A stretch of DNA of 64,000 nt from Yuukianura sp. NJ FZ-2021 (taxonomy: Eukaryota). The notes under the pieces were generated by a model. It searched no databases. It had not been told where the DNA came from and was given only the letters and a program-made list of their open reading frames with translations. Of this stretch, positions 5,071-59,898 are shown piece after piece. Numbering within the stretch: position 1 is the first letter of the stretch; each line of letters begins with the position of its first letter. The translations under genes were made by a program, and so were the position numbers. The DNA lies in contig CM102287.1 of NCBI GenBank assembly GCA_046563655.1, forward strand, positions 2,294,001-2,358,000. The letters are read 5' to 3'.

Positions 5071-5263
5071 CAACCGTCTGTTCAACGACTGTAGCAACTC
5101 GTCATCATCATTGGGATTGGTAACCAGTGATAAACGATCACTGGCAGGTAACGTACTGTATCGTTCCTTCTGTCGTCTGCTATTGGTAGTCACAGTATTG
5201 CCAAATCACCTAATCTAAAGGTTGAGGTTTAGTTGGTCTTAGTAACTGACTAAAGGTACAGTC

Positions 5264-8200
5264 ATGGCTGACTTTATGAAGTTAGTAACTGTCAGAAATG
5301 CGATAAAATCAAAATTAACGAAAATTTTAAATGATTTAAAACAAAATGCTGCTGATATGACTCTTGTGGAATTGCAGGTGACCTTGGATGATGTGGACAA
5401 GCATCAGTCCAAGTTGGATCGCCTCCAAGAGACCATGTTCTCGATGTTGAATTCCGAGGAGGAGATAAACGTCCAAATCGACGCAGGGAACGTCGTAGAG
5501 GAGGTCATCAAGGAGTGTACCATCCTCATCAAGCAGTCTCAGGCTAACATTATGGCAAAAGAACGTGTGGATGTTCCTGTTGCTTCGACATCGGGTCGGA
5601 TTCCGAAATCTGAACAAACCGAGTCAAATGTTAAGGCCAGACTGCCGAAACTGGAGTTACCGGATTTCGATGGAACTTTTGAAGACTGGATCAGCTTCAA
5701 GGATCAGTTTAAGTCCATGATCACGGACAACTCTTCACTTTCGGCCACTGACAAGATGCAGTACCTTAAATCCTGTCTAAAAGGAGAGGCAGAGAAGCTA
5801 ATTGGTCACTTCACGATTTCTGCCAACAATTTTCAACCGGCATGGGATCTCTTGGTGAGACGGTATGGTAATGAAAGGGAAATTATCTTTTCATTAATTA
5901 GGAAGTTGTATAATTTGAGTAAGGTCAATGGTGGTGATAATGTGGCAACTCAGTTGCGAAAACTGTTAGATTCATTTTTACAGATCACCAGCCAACTCAG
6001 AGTAATGGGACGTAAAGTGGGGCAGTGGGATGACCTCCTTGTTGTCACAATGGTGGACAAACTTGACTCGGACACGAGGAAAGAGTGGGGCAAGGCACTG
6101 TCAGGCACTAATATGCCAACTGCTAAGGAACTGGAGGACTTTCTGGAAAATTATGTCAGGGGGATCCAGGCCTTTACGTCCAATGACAAAAACAACTCCA
6201 AATATAAAGAACGACAGACTGAACAAAAGTCACATACCGTCAAGGCCAGAGAGACGTGTCATTATTGCCCAGAGTCACATCCGCTTTTCAGATGCGAAAA
6301 ATTTGCCGCATTGAGAAGGGAGGATAAGGTAAAAGTTTTGAAGCAGTGTAAATTATGTTTTAATTGTCTTTCTAGTGGTCATTGGACAAATAATTGCAAG
6401 TGGAAAGGAACTTGCAAAAAGTGCGGAGAGAAGCACAACACTCTTATCCATGACGGGGAGAGGAAGGAGAAGACTAAAACTGAGACAGCTGGTTTGAGCG
6501 GTGGGTCTAATGGATCTATTTCATCAAATTTCGTCAGCGGTGGGACTGTACTCCTGTCAACAGCCATTGTGGAGGTAACTGATTCAGTTGGTTCCTCTCA
6601 AAAATGTCGCGTGTTCCTGGACAGTGGGTCAGAGGCTTCGTTCATGACGGAAAAATGCGCAACCAAATTGGGTCTCAAAAGACGTAAGTGTAATGTCTCA
6701 ATCAACGGAGTTGGGGCTAATGGAATTTGTAAGGCAAATGGGACTGTTGATTTCAAATTAAAGTCATGTGTAACTGAGTTTGAACTTAATGTTTGTGCCC
6801 TAGTGTTGTCTAAAGTTACAGGTGAACTTCCGTCCTTTCCGGTTGGTAGTCAGTGGAAGTCGTGGGAACATTTGGCTACTTTGAAGCTAGCAGACCCTCG
6901 ATTCTATGAACCACGGGAAGTGGATATACTTTTGGGTGCTGACGTAGCAGAATACGTTTTCCTGGACCAGCGATTGATTGGGAGAAGGAACGAGCCAATT
7001 GCCCGCTCCAGTCAACTCGGATGGATCATTTCAGGGCCTGTTACAAATGATGGTAGCAGTTCAGTTCTCTCGTCAGTCGTCACTCTTCGTGTTCATTCGG
7101 CTCGGGTCGAGTGTGAGGAACTATTGCAGAAATTCTGGGAGTTAGAGCAAGTTCCAGATCACCCGAATTGGACAGCGGAAGAGACAGAAGCGGAAAAGCA
7201 TTTTCTTGCTCACACCAAAAGGGAAAACGGAAGGTATGTTGTGTCACTTCCCATGAAATCTAACATTTCCAATTTAGGCAAATCGAGGGACACTGCCCTC
7301 AAGAGACTCTTTGCAATTGAGAGAAAATTGGCAAAGGATGTCCAGCATCAACGTCAGTACAGGGACTTCATGTCGGAGTACTTGACCCTTGGCCACATGG
7401 AGCCAGTACCAAAAGAGGCACTTGGTGAGACACTTGGTAAGACGTATTATTTGCCTCATCACTGCGTCTTGAAAGAAGACAGTACCACAACCAAATTGCG
7501 GGTAGTATTTGATGGATCCTGCAAAACAAGTTCTAATCTGTCTTTGAACGATTGTATGATGGTAGGTCCAGTCGTTCAGCCAGATTTATTCACACATTTA
7601 CTTAGATTTCGTATGTACACTGTGGCTCTAAAGTCTGACATCAAGAAGATGTACAGACAATTTTTAGTTTCTCCCGCAGATAGAGACTTCCAAAGAATTC
7701 TATGGCGAGAGACCACTGGTGAACCCGTTCGTGAGTTCCGATTGAAGACGGTGACTTACGGTACAGCCGCCGCTCCATTTTTAGCCACTCGTTTGCTAAA
7801 TCAGTTGGCAGAAGACGAGGGAGCACGATTTCCATTAGCAGCTGTGGCCTTAAGGAAACATTTTTATGTTGATGATCACCACGGAAGTTTCCCTCTGGAA
7901 TCGCTGGCAGCGGACACTAAACTTCAATTGGAAGGAATTCTGAGCACAGTGGGACTGGAATTAAGTAAGTGGGCTTCTAATTTTCAAAATGTGATTGGTA
8001 AGGAAATTGTGTCAAATGAAATGCCCAATTTAATCTCATTAACCGATGAAAGTCAATCAAAGGCTTTAGGAGTACAGTGGAACTCCACAGAGGACAATTT
8101 TTCATTTCCAAGTTATAGGTGTGACATACAGGAGTTCTCCAGACGACATTTGCTAAAAGAAATCGCCAGAGTCTTTGACCCGTTGGGATTCTTAGCACCC

Positions 8201-10504
8201 TTTACCATCGTCGGCAAGTTGATCTTCCAGCAACTTTGGGCCATTGACAGAGTAAGTGGTAAGAAAATGGACTGGGATGCTCCGATCCCAGAGTCCATTT
8301 TGGGGGAGTGGAATTCCTACCTAGACGGAATGAGTAAGTTGTCGGTAATTAAAATACCAAGGTTGATTAATTGTGAATGTATTTCGGAACTGCACGGTTT
8401 CTCAGATGCGTCTGAGAAGGCCTACAGCGCAGTAGTTTATCTCCGTGCCTTTAGTTCTTCTATTTCAGTTCGCGTGGTTGCTGCAAAAACGAAAGTAGCA
8501 CCACTGAAGGCACAAAGTCTGCCACGACTTGAATTGTGTGGCGCCCTACTGCTAGCAAAACTGATGAATTCAGTTATCTCTGCAATGGATCTGCGGTCCC
8601 CAGTTCACTGTTGGACGGATAGTGAGATTGTTCTCAAGTGGATATCGTCACCGTCCAGAAGATTTGTGACCTTTGTGGCCAACAGAGTGTCCGAAATACA
8701 ACAGTTAATACCTGGTGAGTCATTTCATTTTGTTCCAGGAATCATCAATCCGGCAGATTGTGCCTCGAGGGGAATTCCGGTTGATGAATTGTCCTCATTC
8801 AATCTATGGTGGAAGGGGCCAGATTTCCTACAGTGTCCTGGAATCCCAAATTTCCAATTTGAAAGGGAAATAGAACGGGAGAACTTGGAGGAACGTAAGG
8901 TGAAATTGGTCAATCATAATCAGTTGGTAGATTCGATTTTGAACAGGTACTCGTCTGCACAAAAGCTCTTTAGAGTCATTGGTTATGTACTTCGGTTTAT
9001 TTCGAATGCCAAGGACAAGAAGGAAGGAAGACAAGTTACGAAGTTGAACTTTCCATTGTTGTCAGTTGAAGATTTGGACCAGGCGATGCTCAAATGTGTT
9101 TGGTTGAGTCAGCGTCAGGATTTCTCGGAGGAAATCAAGCGTTTAAGTCGGGGCAAAATGGTAAAGGTATCAAGTCGAATTGTGTCGTTAACCCCTTTTC
9201 TAGATTCTCATGGCAACATAAGAGTCGGTGGAAGACTCGGGAAAGCAGAAGTACCAGATTCTGCTAAACATCAACTGATCTTGGATGGAAAATCTGCGTT
9301 TGCCAAATTGTTGGTTGAAAACCTCCATCGGAAGCTGCATCATGGAGGAGAGATGGTTCTACGCTCAGAACTTCAACAACGGTTTTGGATCTTACGCGTA
9401 AGGAATTGTGTGAAATTGGTTTTGAGAAATTGTGTCAGATGTAGGCGTGTCAGAGGAATAGCCATGAAGCAGCTCATGGGTGATTTACCGGCAGCCAGAG
9501 TAAGACCAGCAGCAGCGTTCGAGCGGACAGGAGTTGACTATGCTGGCCCGTATATGCTTCAGTCAGTTGGAGGCAGAGGACGGAAGCCGTTTAAAGCATA
9601 TATCGCACTGTTCATCTGCTTCGTCATTAAAGCCATTCACTTGGAAGTGGTAACTGATTTGACTACGGAAGGATTCTTGGGAGCCTTTAAGAGGTTCATT
9701 TCACGCCGTGGTAAGCCCTCTCACATGTATTCCGATTGCGGAACGAATTTCGTTGGTCTCGACAATGCCATCAGAGAGGTAATATCATCGCCAGAGTTAA
9801 ATGCTGACATACATGCAAATTTAGCAGAGGATGGTGTAGAGTGGCACTTCAATCCTCCGTCAGCTCCACACCAAGGTGGATTGTGGGAATCGGCCGTGAA
9901 AAGAGTCAAATTTCATTTAAAAACTGTCATTGGCGAAGAGGTTTTAACATTATCTGAATTTAATACTATTTTGTGCCAAATAGAAGCTGTCCTGAATTCG
10001 AGACCACTGGGTGCCCTATCAGAGGACCCAGATGACATGGAAGCCTTGACTCCTGGTCACTTCCTGGTTGGGCGGTCATTGGTGGCATTACCACAACCGG
10101 ACTTTCAAGAAATCCGGATGAACCGACTCTCCAGATGGGAAAGACAGGAGCAAATTACCCAAAGATTCTGGAATCGGTGGTACAAGGAATATTTGTCCAG
10201 TCTTCAACAACGTGTGAAATGGCAGAGACCACTGGAGAATGTCAAAGTGGGAGATCTTGTGTCCATTGTTGAAGACAACTTACCACCTCTCAAGTGGAGA
10301 CTAGGACGTGTAATCGAGTTACACCCAGGAGACGACGGTTTAGTCAGAGTCGTGACAGTTAAGACTGCAAAAGGAGTCTACAGTCGACCCATCGTCAAAA
10401 TAGTTCCACTACTTCATTGCAACAACTTGGAATCTGACGAAGAAGATTTTGAAGAGAATCAATTGTCAGTTCAAGAAGACGTTGAAGATGAGTCTAAGTC
10501 GTAA
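5264..10504 (+). CDS. BEL/Pao gag-pol polyprotein, 1746 aa, uninterrupted
   Basis: LPKLELPDFDG gag region, three Cys/His knuckles (CHYC..H..C, CFNC..GH..C, CKKC..KH..IH), protease FLDSGSEASF, RT (YYLPHH, LRVVFDGS, YVDD), RNase H (HGFSDASEKAYS), integrase (GVDYAGP, SDCGTNF, WESAVKRVK), in the order PR-RT-RH-IN. Confidence 0.97.
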   Translation: MADFMKLVTVRNAIKSKLTKILNDLKQNAADMTLVELQVTLDDVDKHQSKLDRLQETMFSMLNSEEEINVQIDAGNVVEEVIKECTILIKQSQANIMAKERVDVPVASTSGRIPKSEQTESNVKARLPKLELPDFDGTFEDWISFKDQFKSMITDNSSLSATDKMQYLKSCLKGEAEKLIGHFTISANNFQPAWDLLVRRYGNEREIIFSLIRKLYNLSKVNGGDNVATQLRKLLDSFLQITSQLRVMGRKVGQWDDLLVVTMVDKLDSDTRKEWGKALSGTNMPTAKELEDFLENYVRGIQAFTSNDKNNSKYKERQTEQKSHTVKARETCHYCPESHPLFRCEKFAALRREDKVKVLKQCKLCFNCLSSGHWTNNCKWKGTCKKCGEKHNTLIHDGERKEKTKTETAGLSGGSNGSISSNFVSGGTVLLSTAIVEVTDSVGSSQKCRVFLDSGSEASFMTEKCATKLGLKRRKCNVSINGVGANGICKANGTVDFKLKSCVTEFELNVCALVLSKVTGELPSFPVGSQWKSWEHLATLKLADPRFYEPREVDILLGADVAEYVFLDQRLIGRRNEPIARSSQLGWIISGPVTNDGSSSVLSSVVTLRVHSARVECEELLQKFWELEQVPDHPNWTAEETEAEKHFLAHTKRENGRYVVSLPMKSNISNLGKSRDTALKRLFAIERKLAKDVQHQRQYRDFMSEYLTLGHMEPVPKEALGETLGKTYYLPHHCVLKEDSTTTKLRVVFDGSCKTSSNLSLNDCMMVGPVVQPDLFTHLLRFRMYTVALKSDIKKMYRQFLVSPADRDFQRILWRETTGEPVREFRLKTVTYGTAAAPFLATRLLNQLAEDEGARFPLAAVALRKHFYVDDHHGSFPLESLAADTKLQLEGILSTVGLELSKWASNFQNVIGKEIVSNEMPNLISLTDESQSKALGVQWNSTEDNFSFPSYRCDIQEFSRRHLLKEIARVFDPLGFLAPFTIVGKLIFQQLWAIDRVSGKKMDWDAPIPESILGEWNSYLDGMSKLSVIKIPRLINCECISELHGFSDASEKAYSAVVYLRAFSSSISVRVVAAKTKVAPLKAQSLPRLELCGALLLAKLMNSVISAMDLRSPVHCWTDSEIVLKWISSPSRRFVTFVANRVSEIQQLIPGESFHFVPGIINPADCASRGIPVDELSSFNLWWKGPDFLQCPGIPNFQFEREIERENLEERKVKLVNHNQLVDSILNRYSSAQKLFRVIGYVLRFISNAKDKKEGRQVTKLNFPLLSVEDLDQAMLKCVWLSQRQDFSEEIKRLSRGKMVKVSSRIVSLTPFLDSHGNIRVGGRLGKAEVPDSAKHQLILDGKSAFAKLLVENLHRKLHHGGEMVLRSELQQRFWILRVRNCVKLVLRNCVRCRRVRGIAMKQLMGDLPAARVRPAAAFERTGVDYAGPYMLQSVGGRGRKPFKAYIALFICFVIKAIHLEVVTDLTTEGFLGAFKRFISRRGKPSHMYSDCGTNFVGLDNAIREVISSPELNADIHANLAEDGVEWHFNPPSAPHQGGLWESAVKRVKFHLKTVIGEEVLTLSEFNTILCQIEAVLNSRPLGALSEDPDDMEALTPGHFLVGRSLVALPQPDFQEIRMNRLSRWERQEQITQRFWNRWYKEYLSSLQQRVKWQRPLENVKVGDLVSIVEDNLPPLKWRLGRVIELHPGDDGLVRVVTVKTAKGVYSRPIVKIVPLLHCNNLESDEEDFEENQLSVQEDVEDESKS

Positions 10505-22901: not shown

Positions 22902-23829
22902 CTTCCAAGTATTTTCAGCGGCACTCGGTCTGAATCCAAACTAGAAGCAGAGTACTAGAGTTAGATTTGGTTAGTTTGAATGGATTGGTGATTGATATTG
23001 GTATGACTGTGTTTACTTTGTAATGGGGAGAGTATAGTTAGGAAGTCCTCACTTTTCCAGGGAAGATCCTTATGGAAGTGGACCTGTAATTGAATAGAAG
23101 TGATTAGCGAGAGATGAGTCAAGGTTTGCTTAGTAAATGGAGGAAGTGGAATCACTTGTCCCACTCATTGTTTACATTTCCACCTAACACCTTGTCATTC
23201 TATTATCTCTGCTCAAACTAATCCAAAAGTTAGGTTATTCTAATTGCTGGATAAGAAACAGCGAATGGAGCACTTACGCTTGATGTTTGTGTCAAATGGG
23301 AGTTTGAGGTGGAGCGTAGATGGAATCAAGTAGGAAACATTGTCAAGTGGAGCTGGAGAAGAGAAGTGGAGGTCACCTCTATGCATAGGAGACTGATGAG
23401 AGGAGGTCAAGGTCAAATCGTCAGTTGCCTTGGTTATTGTGTGATGCCAGAGTTAGGGATGCAGTGGAAGAACCAGATGATTGTTGTCAATTGGTAACTG
23501 ACCACGTCTCAATGTATCTAAAACAGAACACAGAGTCAGTGCTGAACATTGGAGTGGACATGTTGAAGTGTTGTTGATTTAGTAGTCACTTACCTCGTTA
23601 AGATGTGGATTCTTGGTACTAATTGAGTGTTTCTCTTTAGTGCTATAGTTAGTTTTAGCGCTGCTCCACTTTCCTTTGACTCATGATAAAGCCTGTTTAT
23701 TTCCAAAGTGGACCACTCCACACTCACTTGAACAACCGCCGAAAGCTCAATGATTGGCACAGTGTTCTGCTGTTGCCAAAATCTTAAGGATTTAGTATTA
23801 TGTAGGTCAATGTAGAGGATGGTACGACC

Positions 23830-24319
23830 CAAGGTAACTAAACAAAAAGACACACGAGCTTTCTAAGGTAGTCTCACGAGCGGTTTTTTCAATTTTTTTG
23901 GCGATATTTTTTAGTGGGGCGGATTGTTCGGTTTCCAAGGAAATAAAACTTTATAAAATTCCTACAAAGGTTGGTTGAGGTAAGAATGATGTGTTACTTG
24001 TAACCAGTATTCAGTATTTTACGAAAATCAACTATTTGCCATTGAGTTGCATTGAATTCGTAGTAATTATGAGCGTAAAATTTGTCTATTCCATTTTCCA
24101 ATCCTAAAACCAATCTACAACACTTAGCCCCATTATTGGCTACACTGGGTGGTTACAATGGAGGAATTTGATTTTGTACTCTGACCGAAGGAAAACGTTG
24201 TCAGAGCAAAGCTAAAAACAAACAATCCGCCCCACTAAAAAATATCGCAAAAAAAATTGAAAAAACCGCTCGTGAGACTACCTTAGAAAGCCCGTGTGTA
24301 TTTATGTTTAGTTACCTTG
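23830..24319. mobile_element. Non-autonomous DNA transposon (MITE), 490 bp, hAT- or P-type
   Basis: About 99-bp TIRs starting CAAGGTAACT (23830-23928 and 24221-24319, about 4 mismatches); perfect 8-bp TSD GTACGACC (23822-23829 and 24320-24327); no ORF. Confidence 0.92.
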
Positions 24320-25637
24320 GTACGACCTATCTCTCTCTACTCTCCGTTTATCCGAATTCCTACTTTCCACCCATCCAAAAAATCTCTAGTCCAAAAGAAT
24401 TCGTCGTAAAACACGAGAAATCCACACTGCCCTACTTCCCTCATTTATCGATCAAATAAACAAAGTCACGTATTACTCCCCCTTTTCTAGATTTGCCTCT
24501 TACGTAGGGGATTCCTCATTGTGTGTCGGCATTAGGGGGTGCCGCTCATTAGGTGTCGGCATGGGCTACGCCGTTCCCTTAGTGTAGTGATCATAAAACT
24601 GAAATGTTTAATTTCAAAATAATACTGCATAATTTTAATAATAATTTAAATTTATGTTAATATTATAATATTATATTATTATTATCATATTTTAATAGAA
24701 ACTACATCATATTAAAATATAATATTTTAAATAACAACTATAATTATATTTTAATTATTACGCTATTTTAATTTATATTAATCATGTAATATTATATTAT
24801 ATATAAATTATATCTAATATAATGCAACTTGAATTTATCATTATTAGATTATTAAGATAATGCAGTATTATTTTCAAATTAAACATTAAACTGGGTGAAG
24901 GGGTGGGAAAGTTGAAGGAGCACACCCCCATTACCCCGGGGGGGACAGTAGGGAAAAAACATCCCCACTCCCCGTGGGGGTGGGGGTGGGGCGGAAAAGT
25001 GGGGGGAACACACCCCGTCCCCCTGGGGGGGGAGGCGGAAAAGTGGGGGAACACACCCCCTTCCCCTGGGGGCAGATCAGTGTGGGCGGTTTACAACCGG
25101 TTTATTAATATATTATAAATACTATGAGTGTTTATATTAATTACTTATAATTGAAAAACAGCTGTTGTTTTATTATTGTTAAAGTTTATATACAATATAT
25201 ATTATATATAAATATAATATATATATATATAATAATATATATTATCAATAAAACTATAATATTAAAAATAATTCTACTCATAATAAAACAACAGCTGCTT
25301 TTCAATTGTAACCAAGTAATATAAATACTCATGATAATAATAATAAATTAATTAACATATATTTTTTTTTGTGAAAAAAAAATAGATTATTATATTTTTT
25401 TCCTGGTAGTTTCGTAATTTATTATTAAATTCACATGAAATGCGAATTTGCCCATATGTGCCCACCCCGGTGATTCCGGCCACCCCGCCATAGCCTCGAT
25501 CCAAACCACCATAAATTGGGGTAATAATTTCCCAAATTCAGCTTCAATTTATGAGCATCTAAGGAAATTACATAAATGCCAATTGTCAAGGACTTTCATT
25601 TTGGTTTTTAGGAAACTTGGCACGATGACAGACTGGA

Positions 25638-27383
25638 TCACACAATTTCCTGCGGAAGTTTCTGGCCGGTGACTCCTGCGACGATGTTTTGTGCTGTGAG
25701 AAGTGCCATGGCTGTCCTGCTCTGCAACGTCGCACTCCCAATGTGTGGAATCAGAACTGGAACAAGAGAGAACAATTAGGAAATACTGGAGGTAAGAAAT
25801 CTTGTTCTTATTTGTAGTTACTAGAAAGTAGACCCAAGAGAGGACCCTTAAGCAGGGGTGAGATGCTGGTCGGATGCTGGATGGATGTCGGGTGGGATCG
25901 CCACTTTCCCAAGGGCCCACTTCACTTCAAGTGGAAGGTGGGCCTTGGGAAATGTGAAGGCGCGTATTAGCGTCCACACGAATAAACACAAGAAGAGAGA
26001 TGAGGATGAGATGGCTGGACAAGGGACACAACTCTCCTGCCCTCCACCGCTGTCAGTCCACTTCCGCAAAGCTAAGGGAAAAGCGAAGGTCAAAGGTCAT
26101 GCAAGGCTACACAGTTAGTTTTAGTGTGAAAACATACCGCAGTTGTTGAGTTTCGTGAGTGGATGTCCCAGTGGCAATGGTTCTGGTGTCATCACATCCA
26201 ATCCAGCAGCAAAGATCTTCTTCTGCTCTAGAGCCTGCACCAAATCATCCTGTTGCACTAGACCTTCCAATCAAAAATCAAAACATTATTTTTCATCTTC
26301 AATTTGTAGATTTTATGTAGAAGGTCATGATCTCGGTCTTACCTCCACGGGATGAGTTGATGAAAATGCAGTTGGGTTTCATGAGATTGAAGGCAGCGGC
26401 ATTGAAGATCTCTTTCGTTTCTGCACTCAGAGCAGCAGTCACAATGATAAAGTCGCTCAACCGACACAGTTCTTCGAATTCCACGTAACGAGCACCTTCC
26501 ACTGCAAAGACAAAATGCTAAGTGTTAGATTTTGCTATGTTGATATTTGTTTGTAGGAATGGAAATGTTTACCGTCTGTTCGTTTTCCTCTGCCGTTGTA
26601 GAGAAACTCTTTGACTCCAAATGGTTGCAGTCGCTTCCAAACTCCTTGTCCAATCCTACCCAATCCATAAATTCCCACGGTAGAGTTGGCCAGTCCCATT
26701 CCCATCATCCAGGTTGGTCCCCACCCACTCTTGATCCAGTCACCACTAAAAACAACGTTATTTTACGCTTAAGGAATTGCCGTTTATTTTGTTTTAAAAC
26801 TCACTCCATCAATGCTTTGTTGGATTCCAAAATGCGACGTGAAGTAGCAAGTAGGAGAGCGACCGTTAGTTCTGCAGTGGCATCCGTTAGGACGTCAGGG
26901 GTAAACCCAAGCTTCACTCCGCGTTTCTGTAAGGCTGGCAGATTGACATGGTCCACCCCAACACTCATCGTCCCAACAACCTTTAGAGTAGGCCCAGCCA
27001 TTGTCACAACTTCGTCGTCTATTTTGTCTTGAACGGTGCAGAAAAGTCCGGCTACTCCGTTGACACTTTTGAGCAGGATTTCTCGAGGGCAGGGACTCGG
27101 TTCTGTCCATGTCTCCACGTCACACCTAAAAACAATGGGAACAAAGTTAGAGTTTGTGAGTCTGATTAGAAACTGAATGCTTGTTTGTAACTTACGATTG
27201 GTTGAGTAAGTCGAAGGCTGGTTTTGGTATATCTGGTCGAGTGACGAAGACTTTGGGTCGATTGTTGGTTGACATGGCTCTGCGACAAGGTTTGAGTGAG
27301 TTTTGTCTTAAAATGCTGGAAGTGAATAGGAGTGGCCCTAGTCCTAGTAGCCGGTTAGATTTAATCCATGAGCTTGACAGCAT
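25638..27383 (-). CDS. GRHPR: Glyoxylate reductase/hydroxypyruvate reductase (D-2-hydroxyacid dehydrogenase), 6 exons
   Basis: [55 protein letters not shown]-binding motif, [18 protein letters not shown], last exon [10 protein letters not shown]...QEIV then stop at 25640-25638. Two in-frame ATGs (27383 and 27275). Confidence 0.93.
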
Positions 27384-28942
27384 CCGATAATCCGATCCAA
27401 GGTGACCTCGACGTGACCTTCACACCTCAACTCAGATGTCTTCTTCCAGTCCTTAAGTCTTACGTGTGTGTTGAGTTCTATACCAAAAATTGAATCGAAA
27501 GGCGTGTCTCTGGTAATTACTAATTAGTCAACTACTGATTAATTAGTTATCCATTAATCCAGCCTTTATTTAGCGATTCCCTTGCCTTTCCGTATGATTT
27601 CCTGTGTCCTGTTTACCGCGTGACTTTATTTTTGAATTTTAAATTTTGAATTTGTGAAGTTGGCGCCTTTTGAAATTCGGTGGAAAAGTTGATGTTTGTG
27701 TTTGGAAGATGGCGCTGCGGAGAGAGGGTGACGGGTGTTGTGTGTGCCTTTTAGTGCAACCGGCGTCTCTGCATTTGAATTTTTCCCTCCTTCCTGGCGC
27801 ATTCGTCTCTTCTTCGTCATCCCTCTTTTTGTTCCTCCATCTTCAGCTGGATCCTCTCTCGCAACTCGCAAGTGAAGTGTCCGTTACTTTAATTCTAGTT
27901 TAACTAACTTTAATCGATTAATTAGTGTTGTTAGTTAGTAGTTGTTAGTTGTTAGCATCATCTCATCACCATACAAAGTGTCAACTACAGGTAACAACAA
28001 CCAACAACTAAAGAAGCAAAAGTCATATGTCTAACGGTCAATGTTTGTTGTTTTTTTGTAGTTGGGAATGGGATTTTCTAAAAATGGATACCCACATCAT
28101 CACCTTCCGCATCGGCATCACCTCTTCCAAATCTTTTGATCCTGCTTCTCAATTCTCCATTTCAGTCGTCGTTCCTCTTGTGTAAACTTTGGCAACGAAT
28201 CATTCCCACCTCTCCATTTCTACTTACTTCAATCGCTGCTCAACTACTTCCAAGACAGGACGCAAACCACTTTTCACATTCCACTTTCCATATTTTGATA
28301 ACAAGGTAAGGAACACTCTTTTTCATTACTCCTGGTTGGCATTTAGTCATTTGTTGGGGCTTCAATCAGTCATAGTGAGAACCGTTGAGGTCAAACATAG
28401 TTCAAACGTCAGGTCACTTGGACAAACGTAATTCGGAAGGGAGGGACTTTACCGGGGTTCATCCCTTACATGAGGTGCTAAAAATGGAATTGAGATGCTA
28501 GGAAGATAAATGGCCCAACACTTGCCATCTTCGTATCTATCAGTGTTTATATTCCATCTTCATTTCTTAGACTCAATTCGGTTCCAGTGCAGGGTGACAC
28601 TGGCTTCGTTTCATTTACCTAAACTTACGCTTCAAAGATCTTTAGCTAAGAGATTCTTCTCAAAACAACCCACGCATTCCACAGCATCTCAATTCCAAAG
28701 TTATTTTATGATTCTGATCCCACGTTATTTTTGTTTTGGTTTTAGATAAGTGGCAAGATGCTATGACTTCTATTCTTGCCTAAGTATTTTAAAGTTCAAC
28801 TGAAGTTATGTACTTTTGTTTTTGTTTTGAAGGAGTAGTGGGGCTATGGGGGACTCTGCCTCACAATTTTTAGCTCAGCCGTAGGGACTAGTCGGGAGCA
28901 GTATTTGGGAGAGGGAATAGCTTAAAAATTACCAAATATCAG

Positions 28943-29365
28943 AAACGGTTTGCTTTTTGAATTTTTAGGGGGCATTTAAAAAGTTCTTTTAAAAACAACT
29001 TTTCTCTAGAAAAACGTTTTTTAAAAATTACTTCTCAAACGTTGCTTTTTGAATTTTTAGTGGGGGATTGAAAAAGTTCTTTCAAAAATAACTTTTCTCT
29101 AGAAAAACGTTTTTTAAAAATTACTTCTCAAACGTTGCTTTTTGAATTTTTAGTGGGGGGTTTAAAAAGTTCTTTTAAAAATAACTTTTCTTTAGAAAAA
29201 CGTTTTTTTAAAAATTACTTCTCAAACGTTGCTTTTTTAATTTTTGTGGGGGATTTTAAAAGTTCTTTTAAAAACAACTTTTCTCTAGAAAAACTTTTTT
29301 TTAAATTACTTCTCAGTTCTCAAACGTTGCTTTTTGAATTTTTAGTGGGGGATTTAAAAAGTTCT
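28943..29365. repeat. Tandem array 1, about 93-bp unit, about 4.5 copies
   Basis: TCTAGAAAAACGTTTTTTAAAAATTACTTCTC (with small variants) recurs at about 29005, 29098, 29191 and 29284. Confidence 0.9.
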
Positions 29366-29388
29366 ATCCTTTCAAATATTTAATCCTC

Positions 29389-30358
29389 ACTTCTAAGCTT
29401 GAATCCTTCGCCACTTTCTATTTTTTTAACCATTAAATTCTTAGTTCTAAGCTTCGACTCCTTCGACACTTTCTATCTCTTTAACCATTAAATTCTTAGT
29501 TCTAAGTTTCGACTCCTTCGCCACTTTCTATCTTTTTATCCATTAAATTCTTAGTTCTAAGCTTCGAATCCTTCGCCACTTTCTATCTCTAACCATTAAA
29601 TTCTTAGTTCTAAGCTTCGAATCCTTCGCCACTTCCTATCTTTTTAACCATTAAATTCTTAGTTCTAAGCTTCGAATCCTTCGCCACTTTCTATCTCTTT
29701 AACCATTAAATTCTTAGTTCTAAGCTTCGAATCCTTCGCCACTTTCTATCTCTTTAACCATTAAATTCTTAGTTCTAAGCTTCGAATCCTTCGCCACTTT
29801 CTATCTCTTTAACCATTAAATTCTTAGTTCTAAGCTTCGAATCCTTCGCCACTTTGTATCTCTTTAACCATTAAATTCTTAGTTCTAAGCTTCGACTCCT
29901 TCGCCACTTCCTATCTTTTTAACCATTAAATTCTTAGTTCTAAGCTTCGAATCCTTCGCCACTTTCTATCTCTTTAACCATTAAATTCTTAGTTCTAAGC
30001 TTCGAATCCTTCGCCACTTTCTATCTTTTTAACCATTAAATTTTTAGTTCTAAGCTTCGAATCCTTCGCCACTTTCTATCTCTTTAACCATTAAATTCTT
30101 AGTTCTAAGCTTCGAATCCTTCGCAGCTTTCTTTTCAACCATTAGATTCTTAGTACTAAGCTTCGAATCCTTCGCAACTTTCTATCTTTTTAACCACTAA
30201 ATTCTTAGGTCTAAGCTTCGAATCCTTCGCAACTCTCTGTCTTTTTAACCATTAGATTTTTAGTTCTAAGCTTTGAATTCTTCGCAGCGTTCTTTCTTTT
30301 TAAACATTAGATTTTTAGTTCTAAGCTTCGCATCCTTCGCAACTTTCTATCTTTTTAA
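29389..30358. repeat. Tandem array 2, 55-bp unit, about 17 copies
   Basis: Unit AACCATTAAATTCTTAGTTCTAAGCTTCGAATCCTTCGCCACTTTCTATCTCTTT; copies degenerate toward the 3' end. Confidence 0.95.
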
Positions 30359-30359
30359 A

Positions 30360-31917
30360 GATATTTTTACATTCAGAGACAAATTTTTTAAAAAGTTTAT
30401 TATTCTCTGTTAAGGCGTAAATTCGCATTCAGAGACAAATTTTTTAAAAAGTTTATTATTTTCAGTTGAGGTGTAAATTCACATTCAGACAAATTTTTTA
30501 AAAAGTTTATTATGTTCTGTTAAGGTGTATTTTGACATTCAGAGACAAATTTTTTAAAAAGTTTATTATTCTCTGTTAAGGCGTAAATTCGCATTCAGAG
30601 ACAAATTTTTTAAAAAGTTTATTATTCTCTGTTAAGGCGTAAATTCGCATTCAGAGACAAATTTTTTAAAAAGTTTATTATTTTCTTTTAAGGTGTAAAT
30701 TCACACTCAGACAAATTTTTTAAAAAGTTTATTATTCTCTGTTAAGGCGTAAATTCGCATTCAGAGACAAATTTTTTAAAAAGTTTATTATTTTCTTTTA
30801 AGGTGTAAATTCACACTCAGACAAATTTTTTAAAAAGTTTATTATTTTCTGTTAAGGTGTATTTTGACATTCAGAGACAAATTTTTAAAAAAGTTTATTA
30901 TTCTCTGTTAAGGCGTAAATTCGCATTCAGAGACAAATTTTTTAATAAGTTTATTATTTTCTGTGAAGGTGTAAATTCACATTCAGAAAATTTTTTAAAA
31001 AGTTTATTATTCTCTGTTAAGGCGTAAATTCGCATTCAGAGACAAATTTTTTAAAGAGTTTATTATTTTCTGTTAAGGTGTATTTTGACATTCAGAGACA
31101 AACTTTTTAAAAAGTTTATTATTCTCTGTTAAAGCGTAAATTTGCATTCAGAGACAAATTTTTTAAAAAGTTTATTATTTTCTGTTAAGGTGTATTTTGA
31201 CATTCAGAGACAAACTTTTTAAAAAGTTTATTATTCTCTGTTAAGGCGTAAATTTGCATTCAGAGACAAATTTTTTAAAAAGTTTATTATTTTCTGTTAA
31301 GGTGTATTTTGACATTCAGAGACAAATTTTTTAAAAAGTTTATTATTCTCTGTTAAGGCATAAATTCGCATTCAGAGACAAATTTTTTAAAAAGTTTATT
31401 ATTCTCTGTTAAGGTGTATTTTGACATTCAGAGACAAATTTTTTAAAAAGTTTATTATTGTTTGTTAAGGTGTATTTGACATTCAGAGACAAATTTTTTA
31501 AAAAGTTTATTATTCTCTGTTAAGGCGTAAATTCGCATTCAGAGACGAATTTTTTAAAGAGTTTATTATTTTCTGTTAAGGTGTATTTTGACATTCAGAG
31601 ACAAATTTTTTAAAAAGTTTATTAATCTCTGTTAAGGCGTAAATTCGCATTCAGAGACAAATTTTTTAAAAAGTTTATTATTTTCTGTGAAGGTGTAAAT
31701 TCACATTCAGACAAATTTTTTAAAAAGTTTATTATTCTCTGTTAAGGCGTAAATTCGCATTCAGAGACAAATTTTTTAAAAAGTTTATTATTCTCTGTTA
31801 AGGCATAAATTCGCATTCAGCGACAAATTTTTTAAAAAGTTTATTATTCTCTGTTAAGGCATGAATTCGCATTCAGAGACAAATTTTTTTAAAAGTTTAT
31901 TATTCTCTGTTAAGGTG
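30360..31917. repeat. Tandem array 3, about 56-bp unit, about 28 copies
   Basis: Unit AGAGACAAATTTTTTAAAAAGTTTATTATTCTCTGTTAAGGCGTAAATTCGCATTC with three recurring variants. Confidence 0.95.
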
Positions 31918-32074
31918 TTCTGTCGATATTTTAGTGATTGGCTTTTTTCGTTTCGGATATTTGGTCATTTTGAAGTTTTTCCCCTTCCCCAATGCTGCGC
32001 CCGACTAGTCCCTATGGCTGAGCTAAAAATAGTGAGGCTGAGTTCCTGCCACCCACACTACTGAAGGTGCTGCG

Positions 32075-35000
32075 ATGAGTATTGGGAAGAGGTGCAGTTG
32101 CGGAAGTGAAGATGCGATGAAGTGGCCTGACAGTGAAGCAGTGGCGAACTTCCGGAAGAAGAAGGATGAACTGGAGATGTACATGGAAAGAATGAAGGAA
32201 GTGAAATGTAAGTCCACAATGTTCAGTATTCTTTAAAGAGTCTTTGGTTGATTGACAGTTCCCGGTGTTGTGAGTGTTTGATTGTTAAGCGATTTCGTCT
32301 CAATGCGTCTTAGGTCCTTCACTATTTGTGACAATATTTCCCTAGCTTGGAAAGGTTACAAAGAGTAGTGTTGAGGTTGAGATACGATTTGTAGTTTGTA
32401 TTGAAGATCAAAAACTTTTCGTGGTTCCTTCCCCCGACTTCTTTATATTTTTGGACAAGAGTCAAAAGATTCGTAGAGGGGAAGAGACTTGGCATTTAAT
32501 AAGCCAATTCTTGAGTGAATCCCATTTAAATAGGCATGGAAATTGAGGCATTGTCCAGGGGTCACGACCAGGCTACTTGTGAGTCCTTGTCTATTTTGAA
32601 TTGGAATGTGAAGATGAAATGATATTGGAATGAGAGATATTGAGTTGAGTAATGTTTTGGTGGTAATTGATTTATGAATGAGTGAGCCACGGTCATGGGT
32701 CTTCCTTGACGCTTCGTCGCTTTTAAATTGGGTCTCTCAGTCCTAACGATGAGATGTTGGCCCTATTTTTGTCACATCGCATCTCTCGGGAGCTCCGCAG
32801 TTTCCCCTCTTCTCATCTTCATCTTCCTCCATTCTAGAATTGTAGTAGTAGCAAGTGAATAGTTGCACACAACTAGGCTCAATCTTGTTTGAATCTGCAA
32901 ATAATCAAAGAATGGAACTGATTGACCTCTCATTCAGTTGGTTCTAAATCAGTTTGGGAATGCAGAAGAATCTGCGGAAGAAAGCGGATGAGCCAGAAGG
33001 TAACTGGGATTAGGATACTCTGTAGATTAATAATCTAAGATTAATCGTAGTAAATAGTCACTTAAGCCCATTCAAAGAGGTGTGAAAGTTGAAGTGTTTG
33101 TGTTTGAGTGGGAGGAGGGTGTGGGGGACGGAAACAAAGTTGTGATTGTGAATGAATTGGAGGGATGAAAGCATCTCAATTGATCTCCCCACTTGCTCTT
33201 TCACTCTCACCTGTTTTAATTAATTGATTTACAGAGTAGTTGAGTTCCCATTCCCCAGTTAGAGATCACTCATCAGTCAGTTCCAGTGTAAATGAACTGT
33301 CCATAAGTTACTAACCACATGGCGCCCGGTCTACCCTAAAACATTCCAGTATCCCCTCAAGTTTATTTTCATCTTCAACGTTTACACAGAGATCTATTGA
33401 CTATTCTGTACTTGAAGTAACACACGATTACTCGTGAATGTAGCTCTGCTGGTCGTGGTTGTGCATAATTGAGGATTTAATTAGTAGTTTGGATGGGGAA
33501 TAGCTCAGTCACTTGTTGAATGTGCAATGGATTCCTTCCCCTCACACTTTGGTACTTAGAATTTACTCGTTAATTTGATTAAATCCAACTGATTCTTGTT
33601 GTTTATTTGCAGATGAGAGGGAAGATGTTCAGAAGAAGACACAGACGAAATGGATCAACTCAATGCTGGCCAAGGTCAGTTACACACTCATTGCTTAATT
33701 GAATTCATTAAAGAGTAATTGTGTTTGGTTAATTGCAGGGCTCCCATCCCCTCGTGAAGGACCTCTTCAATGACTTCAGAGATGGGACTAAACTATTGGC
33801 ACTCCTCGAAGTCCTCACAAACAATGAATATGTAATCCATTTCTTACTTCAATTTATTCTTGTGCTGATCATCTGATTTGTTTTGTAGAAACGAGAAAAG
33901 GGGAAGATGCGAGTGCATCACTTGAACAACGTCAGTCGAGCCCTCCAGATCCTCAAAGACAACAATGTGCGTCTAGTCAACATTTCCAACAACGAAATTG
34001 TGGATGGGAATGGCAAGATCACTCTCGCCTTGTCCTGGAGCATCTTCCTCCACTGGCAGGTCAGTTTATTTATGTCAAAAGCAGTAAAATCTTCTCAATC
34101 AGCTGATCAATGATTCCGTTTTTCCTTTACTTAGGTCAATGATATCATGAAGAGCTTGATGGCTTCCACCCACCAAACGAATCTGGAGAAGGCTCTTCTG
34201 TCCTGGTGCCAAACGAACACAAAGGTTAGCCAACAATTTCACTTTTGAATTCGTCACCTAACTTTGCCTAAATGGAAATTGTTTGTTTACAGCCTTATCC
34301 AGGAGTTGACATTAAGAATTTCTCCACTTCGTGGTCAGATGGATTGGCTTTTGGTGCTTTGCTACATCGGTGGCGTCCAGACATTCTGGACTATCCTAAT
34401 TTGGCCTCTAAAACAGACCCCTGTGAGAGACTGGAGATAGTATTCAAAGCAGCACACGATGCACTAGGAATCGAGAGACTCCTGGATCCAGAAGGTCAGC
34501 ATTTACTTCTTTTAACTTAAAAATTAGCGGATCCAGTATGAACAGTTTGATTTGTGTGATTTCAGATGTGAATACTGCGATTCCGGACAAGAAGAGTGTG
34601 ATGATGTATGTGATGTGTTTGTTCCAATCGTTGGCTCAAAGTGGACTCGAACCTCCGCCTCTTCCGCTCACTGAAGAATTAGAAGAGGAAATCAAGATGG
34701 AAGTGGCCAAAGTGGAAGCAGAATTGCACAAACCGCCTTCCGAGGAACTCGTGTCCTACCAAAACATTGTGGAGCAAGTTCTGTCCTGGTTGCTCATCGC
34801 AGAAGATCGGATCTCATCCATGGAACCCATCAGCACGCAACTCAACCAAGTCAAGAAGCAGTTCCAGGAACACGAGGTAACTTCACACTCAGATTGTTTT
34901 CAAGAACTGTTGGTCAGTTGGATTATTTTGTAGAAATTCATGCTGAATTTGACGGAGCATCAGAGTGACGTTGGGGAAGTGCTGCAGGAGGGCTCCAAAA

Positions 35001-38000
35001 TCTTGACTGAGGCCAAACTCGTTCCGACGGAGATTGAGGAAGTTCGTGTGCAGATGAAACTGCTCAACACGAAGTGGGAAGATCTCAGAGTCAAAGCCAT
35101 GGACAGACAGAACAAGTAAGAACAGATCTATCAAATTATTCCTGCCATTTCATCCAATCAATTACATCGAAGTGAATTGCCCCGAATCAATTTCCCCCAA
35201 TATCTTCTAGCCTAACCTAAGCTAAAATTTTCTATCCTAACCTAAGCTGAAATTTCCTATCCTAACCTAAGCTAAAATTTTCTATCTTAACCTAAGCTAA
35301 AATTCGCTATCCTAACCTAATCTAAAATTTTATATCCAAAGTTAGGATATAAAATTTTAGATTAGGTTAGGATAAAAATTTTTAGATTAGGTTAGGATTC
35401 CTAACCTAATCTAAAAAATTTTATCCTAACCTAATCTAATAACTTCTGTTCTAACCTAATCTAATATCTTCTGTTCTAACCAAGCTAAATACAACTTTCG
35501 TTGGAATTCAACTTTCTTTGTAATTCGCTTCGGTGTAATTCAACTTTCGCTGTAATTGCTTTCGGGGAAATTCATTCGGGGTAATTTAGTTCGTTGTAAT
35601 TCATTCGGTTAACTGGCGTGCTCCCCTATCTTACTTTTTATTTATTATAATTATTATTTTTTTATTATTAATTTATTTGTGTTTTAGTATCCACGATAAG
35701 TTGATGACTCTTCAGTTGGCTGAGCTGGAAGCACTCAAGGAATTCCTCACTGCGACGGAAGATCGGATTTCTCACGTGGGTCCTCCGCCGCTGGAGGATT
35801 TAGAAGCACTGGAAGAAAGCGTCAAAGCACAACAACAACTTCATGAAGACATTCTCAAGCAGCAGGAGAGAGTCGTCGCTTTCTCCAACCTCGTAGTCGT
35901 CGTGGATGAAAATAATCATCAGGACAATGGTAAACCATCTCAAAATACTTAAGTATTTTTAGTAAGTAACTTTACCCTTATAGTAGTTTGTTGTTCTCTT
36001 GAATTAGATTTTTCGAACATGGAAGATCAGTTAGCAGCTCTGAGTGAACGGTGGGCCCACATTTGTTCCTGGACAGAAAAGAGAGGAGCAGTTCTGCAGA
36101 AACTAAAGCAACAAGTGCCGGATTGCCTCACCGAAGAAGTCTACTTGACAAAGTGGCTTCAAGATCAAGAGAAGAAACTGAGAGAAGTTGAAGCAAATCC
36201 AAATGACACCTCAGAAGATTCACTCATGGACAGATACGAAAAACTACAAGTAAACAATCTTAGTTTTCATTTTATAAACAAACTTCGTTTTATTTGAATT
36301 TTTTTCACTCAACCTAAGTTCATTTTTTCAGAATCTGCAAACAGAAATGGAGGAAAAGATGAAAGGAATAACGAAACTGCAGAACTGCGTCCAGACTTTG
36401 GTAGATGAATGCAGTGGAGCCACTTTTGGAGGGTCTGAAAGTGATACTGGAGGTGGAGTTGGGAAGAAGATGCTGGACAAACTGGAGAGTTTGCAGGATC
36501 GGTGGGAGGCCTTGTCCCAAATCATGGAAGCCCAGTCACAACGCGTAAGTCACTCCATCAGCTGAAGTACATGGCATCATTTTGCACTTAAACGCACGCT
36601 TCAACCCTTTAACTTTTAATTTAACGACACTTTAGTTGAACTTCTGTTTAATATCTGTTAATTTTAATGTCAGTACTTATGTTTAACCCTGATGTTGAGC
36701 ATGCTTAACACTCTTGTGTAGATTACAATGTACGGAGTCCAGTCAAGGGAGAAGCAGCAGGAGAGAGAGGTCTGTGGGCCCGCCGGTGTGGAAATGGTTG
36801 ACATTTTGGCCATGTCCAAGCAGGTAACTTTGGCATGAACTCAACTACACTTTCAGTCCTAACAATGCTCTAAATTGCACTTGACTTTTCCAACACTGTG
36901 TCCAAACATCCATTTTTCATTGATTTCCACTCTTCCAGCATGAATAGAAATTGTGTTGATGATCTTTTGTTGTGTAGGACTTTCCGAAGGCGAAACGAAC
37001 GAAGATTATGAATGAATTTGAAACTTCGTACGGAAGAGTGTTTGAGTGGGTGACGAGAACAGAGAGCCTCATAGAAGTCGTTCCAGGAAGCGAAACCACC
37101 ACATTTGATGAATTGAGTGTGGATGAACAACTGATTCTGTGGGAAGACTTGGAACTGGAGCTCCAGACGAATGAACCTCTCTTCAGAGATGCTCTCAAGG
37201 ACTCTCAAGCACTCATCAAGCACATGAGTCAAGGTAAAAATATCACTTTTAACTTAAATCTTGAAAATTTAAAACTGAAGTCATTATAAAACCTTTCAGA
37301 GAGTCAGGAAACGCTGGATGTGGAAGAGCAAGTTCGCGTTCTAAAAGAAAAGTGGGACAAAGTAGGCCAAGTTCTCAATAAAAGGAAGCTTTTGATCGAC
37401 TATCTGCTGGCGAAGAAGCAAATCCAAGGAGAGATTTCCACAATGTCCAACATCCTAAGTGTAAGTTCCATTTCTTTCATGGATTTTTGAAGTTTGAATG
37501 TGTTTTTGAAAATACTTTTTTCGTAGGCTTACGAGAAGTGGCTGGATAGTCAGGGTGAAGTGAGTCCAATTTCCAACCAACCTCGTAAACTGCTGGAGCA
37601 GTGTCGAGTGAAGAAGAAAACGATGACTTCTCACGAAGGACGACTGGGGAAACTGAACACAAAGGCAGCAGAAGTGCTGGCAATGGACCATGGGAAAGAA
37701 GACAGTGAACTCAAGACAGAGTTTAGTCAGTTCTCCAATCGATGGGCACAAGCAGTAGAGCGGTAAAAGGCAAAATATTATTTGCTTAGTGCGCTAGAAA
37801 CTGAAACTTTATTTTTGTAGAGTGAACTTGAGACTGTCTCAGTTGGAGGGAATCAACCGAATGTCTGCGGAGGAGAAGAAGAGTGAGTCTTCTCATTTGA
37901 TTGGTCAATGGTTGAAGCAGACTGAAGCTTTTGCAGCAGAAGAGCCCAAGTTCCATGACCTCAAGACGATGAAGACTCACCAAAGTCGGTTGCAAGAAGT

Positions 38001-58305: not shown

Positions 58306-59898
58306 CCTCTGACCCCAAGGGACTCTACACTCGATGAACTACTCTTTAGACTACTTTTTATCTGGACTCCAGTTGACCTGCATTGTGTTCAGTGGACTAA
58401 CTCCCCTGGAATATCAAGTGACTCTTCCTATATCAAGTCATAATCAGTAACTGTTTCTCTTGTACAAATGAGGGAGGAGGGACTCTTTCTAATTCTCTAC
58501 TTAATCCCATCCCGCAGTCACTAGCAACTTAGACATCCAATCCAACTAATCTCTAAGTTTAATTAACTATACATTTTACAGTAGTCTTAGCTTTGGGGAA
58601 ATCATTGTTAGTTTAGCACCCAATTCAGGGACACTTTGTTATGCATTTGACTCTTTCCTCCTTCCTTCAAACGAAAATAAACGAACATGGTTAGTGAATC
58701 GCTTGTATAAAAGAAGAGCTCAATTTGTTTTATAATTTCTCAAAAATTTTCCTCATAAATTCCTAGGCTCTTAAAATTGGGAATTGTGTTAATTAAATAC
58801 TTAAAACTTAAGTGCAAATTCATACACTTTTGGAATTTGGAATTATTTTGTTGTAGTGCTTAATTCACGATGCTGAACATCTTAAACGCAAATTGGTTCT
58901 AATCCGTTTTCTAAGAACATTTCGCAACCAAAATTTCAAAGATTTTTAAAAATTAAAAAAAAAAAAAATTTGAAGAATTTAACATTTTAAAAATTTATGA
59001 GGTCATTGTGAGTTGAGGCGCAAAGAGATCTCCTGTCTAACGCATTTTGTTCCGGAGTTAGGCATTGCATTGCATTTTCAAACTAAAATCTAGGAACTAT
59101 GAAACTATGATGCATAAGCTTTATTTTTCAAAATTTCACAAAATTTTGAACATTATATGTGCAATTTTTTGTACAAATTAAGTGTAGGGATATTTGGAAA
59201 AGAGATGGTGGCGGAGTACTATCGATGGAGTTGATTCGTGATTTGTACTAGCTGTGGAATTGATCGTGACCTCCAAGTTCAAGTTTTGAAAGAGTCTTTT
59301 ACATGGGGAGATAGGCGAGAGAGCAGAAAAGTTGACAGGGGATCGTACGAAGCAGAGAGGCGACATAGGGCTTTTGGTCTCCTTTGCTTTTTGTATGGGA
59401 TATGGGAAGGCAAGTGCCGGGAAAAGGGTTGGGGTAGGAGAGTGAGTGTAGCCTTCTTGCGTCGCATAATCTCCTGTCAACTTTTCCTCTCTTCTGCCTA
59501 TCTCCCAATGTTAAAGTTCAGTTCAAAATCAGAGAGGGTGACAGGGATTGCTGTGCAGCAACTCTTACACTAACCAAATAAATTGGTCGGGTGACATCGG
59601 ATTGTGCGAGTAGCTCCTACACAAACCAAATAAACTATTTCAAAAAATAATGTCAACTGTTTTCCCGCCACTGGCTCACGTGACTCATATTTTAAAATTA
59701 ATCAATTGCTTTTTTAGTAATCAATTACTCTGATCGTTTAATTCCTATGATTCTTCATCAATTAATTAATCCTCATCAGTTAAACGATTTACGCAGAGAT
59801 TAGGATGTCAGTTCGCTTATGTTGAAACGTTTTTATTCAGTTTTATGGTCGTTTATTTAGCAGAAGCAGTAAGTGCAACAACAAGTGAGACAAATAAG

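Follow-up and report, generated by a model that had tools for sequence, protein, structure and literature searches.

The stretch analyzed here, referred to as the window, comprises 64,000 nt of DNA from Yuukianura sp. NJ FZ-2021 (assembly GCA_046563655.1, contig CM102287.1, positions 2,294,001 to 2,358,000 of the forward strand), and all coordinates are counted from its first letter. At 28834-32062 the window holds a gene-less element of 3.2 kb in which three different tandem arrays lie between terminal inverted repeats (TIRs) that open with AGTAGT and close with ACTACT, the whole being flanked by a short duplication. This 3.2-kb stretch is very probably a real transposon relic of some kind. 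Its features, in order along the window, are as follows.

28829..28833, no strand: GAAGG, the left-hand flanking duplication (extended to TGAAGG, from 28828, once the terminal T is taken as target); sequence read directly
28834..28947, plus strand: left TIR, 114 nt, starting AGTAGT; repeat search and ungapped comparison, 94/114
28950..29365, plus strand: array 1, 93-bp unit x 4.4, 91% matches; Tandem Repeats Finder (TRF)
29362..30358, plus strand: array 2, 55-bp unit x 18.3, 91% matches; TRF
30370..31915, plus strand: array 3, 56-bp unit x 27.8, 88% matches, with a higher-order period of 166 bp (three units); TRF
31916..31948, plus strand: unique spacer of 33 nt between array 3 and the right TIR, outside the TRF arrays and the TIR
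31949..32062, minus strand: right TIR, 114 nt, ending ACTACT; repeat search and ungapped comparison, and joined to the right flank in a contig of public run X4
32063..32067, no strand: right copy of GAAGG; sequence read directly

Terminal inverted repeats and flanking duplication

A repeat search of the window recovered the two arms (28834-28947 and 31949-32062) as sequences of 114 nt each, 82% complementary and with 3001 nt between them. Compared without gaps, the left and right arms are identical at 94 of 114 positions and differ at 20, and BLASTN aligns arm to arm with E = 1e-27 over the inner 98 nt. An earlier reading of this DNA, made from the letters only (the sequence-only reading), had described ungapped 114-bp TIRs with about 20 mismatches and AGTAGT/ACTACT ends, and the comparison bears it out. 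The likeness between the arms stops exactly at AGTAGT on the left and ACTACT on the right, with nothing matching beyond. The left junction reads ...TTTTGAAGG followed directly by AGTAGT, and at the right junction ACTACT is followed directly by GAAGGTGC.

The duplication that flanks the element is a clean 5 bp, GAAGG. The sequence-only reading had offered GAAGG or TGAAGG; the shorter form stands as it is, while the 6-bp form requires the last T of ACTACT to be assigned to the target, and so to be shared with the terminus. An exact 5-bp match of flanks was found for 0.17% of 2,000,000 random position pairs of the window, a value that rises to 1.3% when a slack of +/-1 and a length of either 5 or 6 bp are allowed; AGTAGT accounts for 0.033% of all hexamers in the window. 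Neither arm taken singly has a duplication of its own, and only the arm pair is flanked by one. The inverted-repeat structure with its duplication is well beyond chance.

The 20 sites at which the arms differ comprise 8 transitions and 12 transversions (Kimura two-parameter distance, K2P, 0.20), and they are spread unevenly, with no mismatch in TIR positions 1-7, 8 in positions 8-30, 5 in positions 31-76 and 7 in positions 77-114. Both arms share their first 7 nt, divergence is highest in positions 8-30 (35%), and the best-conserved part is a core at about 28854-28910. The terminal heptamer and the core have thus been preserved, and it is the sequence separating them that has changed. The arms may never have been the same, or else the family was under constraint before the present copy died.

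Tandem arrays and coding content

All three repeat units of the sequence-only reading (93, 55 and 56 bp) were recovered, and the first two arrays abut as it had claimed; the second and third do not, being separated by 11 nt. The three arrays are mutually different and share one orientation, and they lie between the arms without being mirrored; the only inverted matches inside are short, A/T-rich ones of 20-46 nt. By eye, and without a score, there is a likeness between the 3' part of the 93-bp unit and the TIR's inner end.

Mean pairwise monomer identity is 0.887 in the 93-bp array, 0.897 in the 55-bp array and 0.901 in the 56-bp array, against 0.825 between the arms, so that the greater homogeneity of the arrays, also noted in the sequence-only reading, is a real if moderate contrast. 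Monomers of the 93-bp array are 93-100% alike to their consensus. There are also perfect direct repeats of 158 bp at offset 55 (array 2) and of 138 bp at offset 110 (array 3). These perfect repeats, together with the higher monomer identity, indicate that in-place duplication of the arrays is more recent than the divergence of the arms.

No open reading frame (ORF) overlapping 28834-32062 exceeds 103 aa, and those present run through the repeats; the ORF list for the element contains no gene for pPolB (a protein-primed DNA polymerase B), integrase or capsid. The element is by gene content no Polinton, and can at most be a gene-less derivative of one. A search against Rfam at E <= 1 returned only three sub-threshold hits to miRNA models, all within array 3, and ARAGORN found no tRNA. 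A structured-RNA reading of the arrays was rejected on the sub-threshold status of the Rfam hits, as was a tRNA-like or short-interspersed-element-like reading of the TIR core, for which ARAGORN gave no tRNA and Rfam nothing outside array 3.

Contigs from public sequencing runs

Contigs of four public DNA runs (X1 to X4, out of five that came from two labelled organisms) were aligned at 80% likeness to 28474-29042, a stretch free of long repeats and made up of the left flank, the left TIR and one 93-bp unit; the depth of such contigs is no copy number. The left junction is bridged by a contig of X4, from organism B (record 28, 28707-28887), which runs from the flank through 54 nt of the TIR with 6 differences. 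Another X4 contig joins the right arm to the right flank with 1 difference in the 30 letters compared, and other run contigs join the TIR to the 93-bp array. The insertion is also present in the second labelled organism (B). Since both junctions occur in organism B, in contigs about 3-5% off the window, the insertion is old and probably fixed. The sharp TIR ends, the flanking duplication and the recurrence of both junctions in independent runs argue that the element behaves as one inserted unit.

Over the left flank (28474-28833), all contigs of X1, X3 and X4 differ from the window by about 3-5%, and they fall into two variants in X1 (depths 832 and 477) and in X4, with a single contig in X3. 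Given these differences, the public runs stem not from the assembled individual but from diverged ones or from a sister species. At the right boundary, one X4 contig of 200 nt starts with a 29-mer that matches 32133-32161 at 27/29, continues with 71 nt from the outer side of the right TIR and, after these, 100 nt of right flank. Both of its ends seem to be the same 30-mer, so that this single contig looks like a 170-nt cycle (window 31992-32162), as would result from a circle, or from tandem duplication of a local stretch, spanning the right boundary of the element; no such arrangement is present in the window.

The TIR core is covered more often than the flank. Position 28897 lies in at least 8 contigs of X1, at least 12 of X2, at least 5 of X3 and at least 4 of X4, and flank positions in 1-3 contigs of X1, X3 and X4, with X2 being noisy (up to 10 on the flank). 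Loose contig ends before 28866 and behind 28905/28911 lead into several unlike sequences, and the TIR core is therefore not unique in related genomes; a TIR occurring only once in the genome, which the sequence-only reading had named as speaking against itself, is not what the contigs contain. The part repeated in other contexts is mainly a core of about 45-60 nt, the contigs being short and the terminal 20 nt of other copies lying beyond their reach. Two of the upstream sequences begin with AGAG some 30 nt before the core, near the place that AGTAGT occupies here, a weak likeness seen by eye in a 30-letter consensus.

Summed depth at the TIR core is about 4-10x that of the flank which, taken roughly, suggests that the TIR family is low-copy. 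Where contigs lead from the inner end of the TIR into the 93-bp array, their depths are 604 in X1 (flank, 1309), 342 and 186 in X3 (flank, 273) and 17 in X4 (flank, 25). The 93-bp unit itself reaches a summed depth of about 2-13x the flank in the four runs, and the array here has 4.4 units. With the junction of TIR and 93-bp array at about flank depth, the present composite may exist only at this locus.

Origin of the element

We interpret the locus as a single insertion, old and no longer mobile, of a gene-less DNA element in which only the 114-bp TIRs are family-specific, and which is most likely of the Polinton/Maverick kind, a reading to which we give a probability of roughly 0.5. The ends are what point to this class, and on them the element is about equally apt to be Polinton-derived or not. 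Statements that carry a PMC number, here and below, are those of individual passages of the papers concerned. In PMC8097293, (AGT)2//(ACT)2 is given as the commonest end motif of vertebrate Mavericks, with (AG)3//(CT)3 as another, and the AGTAGT...ACTACT ends of the present element correspond to the first of these. The TIR length of 114 nt falls within the ranges given there for Mavericks (46-1,447 bp, with target-site duplications, TSDs, of 6 bp) and in PMC10748475 for Polintons (100-1,500 bp, with TSDs of 5-8 bp). A flanking duplication of 5-6 bp and an apparently low copy number are further points of likeness.

The insertion could have come about as follows. A linear double-stranded element with (AGT)2 ends would have been joined to the chromosome by the retrovirus-like (rve) integrase of an autonomous relative, at a staggered cut of 5 bp (possibly 6) placed 12 nt upstream of a start codon, and repair would have produced the GAAGG duplication. 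The site before insertion would then have read ...TTTTGAAGGTGCTGCG... and would have held GAAGG once only. The AGT doublet at either end may be a terminal repeat of the kind on which protein-primed polymerases, once they have primed, slide back; the terminal repeats of Mavericks have been tied to such a jumping-back step of protein-primed replication (PMC8097293). Use of this sort would explain why (AGT)2 is intact in both arms, beside a following 23 nt that are 35% diverged. After insertion the copy would have decayed, with the arrays of 93, 55 and 56 bp reshaped in place by unequal exchange or slippage.

A short gene-less element mobilized in trans and the collapse of a longer copy after insertion cannot be told apart at this locus. 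The three different, unmirrored arrays and the short unique TIRs speak mildly against a simple collapse of long, repeat-filled TIRs, and a family of identical short elements is made somewhat less likely by the single-copy look of the junction between TIR and array. A more specific version of the Polinton/Maverick reading, which we consider unlikely, is that of a ‘mini-Maverick’, a gene-less miniature genome that kept about 114 bp of each Polinton end, was copied by the protein-primed polymerase of a helper and was inserted by the helper's integrase. It is similarly unlikely that such a genome would be comparable to an endogenized defective-interfering polintovirus genome, with the arrays serving as filler or as repeated cis-sites.

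Several observations weigh against a Polinton/Maverick origin. The clean duplication is of 5 bp, where the canonical Polinton duplication is of 6 bp (passages of PMC8097293, PMC8969392, PMC3014272 and PMC10045372, with PMC8969392 and PMC3014272 also describing long TIRs). The end-motif statistics are those of vertebrates (PMC8097293), and the host of the present element is an invertebrate. Divergence between the arms amounts to 17.5% (K2P 0.20) and is uneven along the TIR, and the two may never have been identical. To the lack of pPolB, integrase and capsid genes in the element itself is added that none of the Polinton kind was recognized in the window ORFs scanned with Pfam (13 of the 64 ORFs of >=110 aa); the sole integrase domain among these 13 belongs to a BEL/Pao retrotransposon. 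Contig depth is no copy number, and in X2 the flank is itself covered by up to 10 contigs. Exact searches of viral, metagenome and prokaryote-genome contigs for the TIR core returned 0 matches each, which counts for little in collections with so little animal DNA. The sequence-only reading had further proposed that the element carries satellite DNA around the genome, and this is unsupported, with the junction of TIR and array at about flank depth and the 93-bp unit at only about 2-13x the flank. A similar exact scan of metagenome contigs (again with little animal DNA) for a motif of the 55-bp unit also gave 0 matches. The proposal of a non-autonomous Polinton derivative is thus upheld as to the ends, the TIR length, the duplication of 5-6 bp and the single inserted unit, and falls short in the clean 5 bp in place of 6 and in the absence of Polinton genes from the sequences surveyed.

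The first alternative, possible though doubtful in our judgment, is a non-autonomous cut-and-paste element of another, perhaps undescribed, DDE superfamily, with long imperfect TIRs, 5-bp duplications, AGTAGT ends by coincidence and an interior filled with tandem repeats. A duplication of 5 bp rather than 6, and the lack of Polinton genes in both the element and the 13 scanned ORFs, would be accommodated directly, and a best-conserved subterminal core is what would be expected of a transposase binding site. TIR elements with tandem repeats are known from other superfamilies {Tetris (PMC4079207), Galileo and DTC84 (PMC3879986)}, and relatives of MuDR make duplications of 4-10 bp (PMC10045372). 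However, AGT-type ends combined with duplications of 5-6 bp match none of Ginger, IS3EU/GingerRoot and piggyBac as characterized in passages of PMC2836005 and PMC10045372, coincidence would place AGTAGT at a given position at a rate of about 0.03%, and the depth of the TIR core, which as contig depth is no copy number, suggests a low-copy family unlike typical MITEs (miniature inverted-repeat transposable elements). If the end motif is a coincidence, the locus holds an ordinary decayed TIR element.

It is improbable that no transposon is involved, and that two opposed copies of a short dispersed repeat happen to surround a minisatellite cluster, or that a local inverted duplication took place, with GAAGG matching by chance. 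The arms are only 82% alike, the part that recurs in other places is for the most part the core (about 45-60 nt) and not the whole arm, and with slack a flank match of 5-6 bp has a chance of 1.3%. Against this, the likeness breaks off at one and the same hexamer on either side and nothing matches past it, the exact 5-bp match sits at the very TIR edge (0.17% by chance) and the duplication belongs to the arm pair and to neither arm alone; in consensus sequences compared by eye, the other copies also seem to be homologous, if more diverged, on both sides of the core.

An assembly artefact, through collapse or mis-joining of a repeat region, is most improbable: 3 kb of tandem arrays are prone to misassembly, and array copy numbers in the window may be wrong, but contigs of independent runs bridge the flank to the left TIR (X4 record 28, with 6 differences over 28707-28887), and others connect the right TIR with the right flank, or the TIR with the 93-bp array.

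Should the Polinton/Maverick reading be true, a 3.2-kb shell with perfect (AGT)2 ends would imply that some 100 bp per end are enough for integration, and the element would offer a natural point from which to begin defining the cis-elements that this virus-like class needs. In the case of a miniature genome served by a helper, it would define minimal cis-requirements of Polinton replication and integration, and would represent a route by which virus-like elements could seed tandem repeats beside genes.

Surrounding sequence

Within the other 60.8 kb of the window there is no further copy of any part of the element (best BLASTN match, 19 nt, E = 0.12), and the pattern of a short MITE form, AGTAGT...ACTACT with the two motifs 100-130 nt apart, has 0 matches in the window. 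An ATG at 32075, 12 nt downstream of the last base of the element, opens a frame that reaches a GTAAGT at 32208, and this frame is presumably an exon. With the element lying 12 nt upstream of this exon-like ORF, it may affect the promoter region.

The Pfam-scanned ORFs include WD40 exons, an exon of Phe-tRNA ligase alpha, an exon of a 2-hydroxyacid dehydrogenase (26801-27307, minus strand) and a dystrophin-type EF-hand exon (55917-56318), so that the window is animal DNA. The best named matches of the Phe-tRNA ligase alpha exon, at 71-79% identity, are for the most part arthropod proteins, joined by some from an annelid, an echinoderm, a hemichordate, a tunicate and a fish, and one further protein reaches 90%; on these matches the host was placed among the invertebrates. 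The BEL/Pao retrotransposon lies at 5246-10504 on the plus strand and is apparently intact, with an unbroken frame of 1752 aa that contains DUF1759, Peptidase_A17, an integrase zinc-binding domain and DUF5641.

Other inverted repeats are scattered through the window. A MITE-like element at 23818-24331 has arms of 117 nt that are 91% complementary and lie 280 nt apart; its arms contain TTTTTAGTGGGG, which is also found in the 93-bp unit, probably by chance, there being no BLASTN link between the two. After a G-rich 43-bp repeat (2.1 copies, 24981-25072) comes an inverted repeat, AT-rich, whose 77-nt arms are 84% complementary (25100-25356). Between the exon-like ORFs downstream of the element, a foldback-like cluster (35205-35574) consists of 25-bp repeats in both orientations, with arms of up to 79 nt that are 78-88% complementary. 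Finally, an inverted repeat at 59284-59528 (82-nt arms, 74% complementary, 81 nt apart) lies in a purine-rich/pyrimidine-rich stretch.

Comparison with known elements

Polintons, or Mavericks, encode pPolB together with a retrovirus-like integrase, in most cases alongside a capsid protein, an ATPase and a protease, and they are known almost only as gene-bearing elements of 13-25 kb. The present element departs from them in being gene-less, in its length of 3.2 kb and in having an interior that consists of three unrelated tandem arrays. In the full-text literature searched, with Repbase and the founding papers outside the search so that described examples may exist, phrases for non-autonomous Polintons or Mavericks were found in only 1 paper, and there for Tlr1.

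Among cut-and-paste families, Transib elements make 5-bp TSDs and have ends in which CAC comes first, which the ends here do not fit. Ginger2/TDD and IS3EU/GingerRoot come close in other respects, with TIRs of 45-300 bp, duplications of 4-6 bp and enzymes related to the Polinton integrase (passages of PMC2836005 and PMC10045372). Ginger1 and Ginger2 (TDD) have TGTNR termini and duplications of 4 bp, or of 5 bp in TDD-4/5 (PMC2836005), and membership was rejected on the AGTAGT ends. IS3EU/GingerRoot makes 6-bp duplications and has TA..TA termini, occasionally TG..CA (PMC10045372), and was rejected likewise, the ends here being AG..CT. The termini of piggyBac are CC..GG (PMC2836005, PMC10045372).

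The 93-bp unit of the present element does not look abundant by contig depth, in which it differs from the repeats of Tetris, a foldback element of Drosophila virilis. Both are TIR elements that house tandem repeats, those of the non-autonomous Tetris being able to vary in copy number (PMC4079207). According to passages of the same paper, however, the 220-bp repeats of Tetris lie inside its TIRs and also form satellite arrays of kilobases elsewhere, whereas the arrays here lie between short unique TIRs; a Tetris-like foldback membership was rejected, since the tandem repeats are not part of the inverted arms.

A tandem-repeat block within a non-coding element is also found in certain bivalve MITEs; to our knowledge these, DTC84 among them, are without long TIRs with duplications of 5-6 bp. 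DTC84 of Donax trunculus resembles the present element in being short and non-coding, with a central block of tandem repeats, and is unlike it in being high-copy with up to a few repeats (passages of PMC3879986), where three arrays with about 50 monomers are found here and the TIR family looks low-copy. The element at 28834-32062 thus offers a compact example of tandem-array turnover inside a transposon shell.

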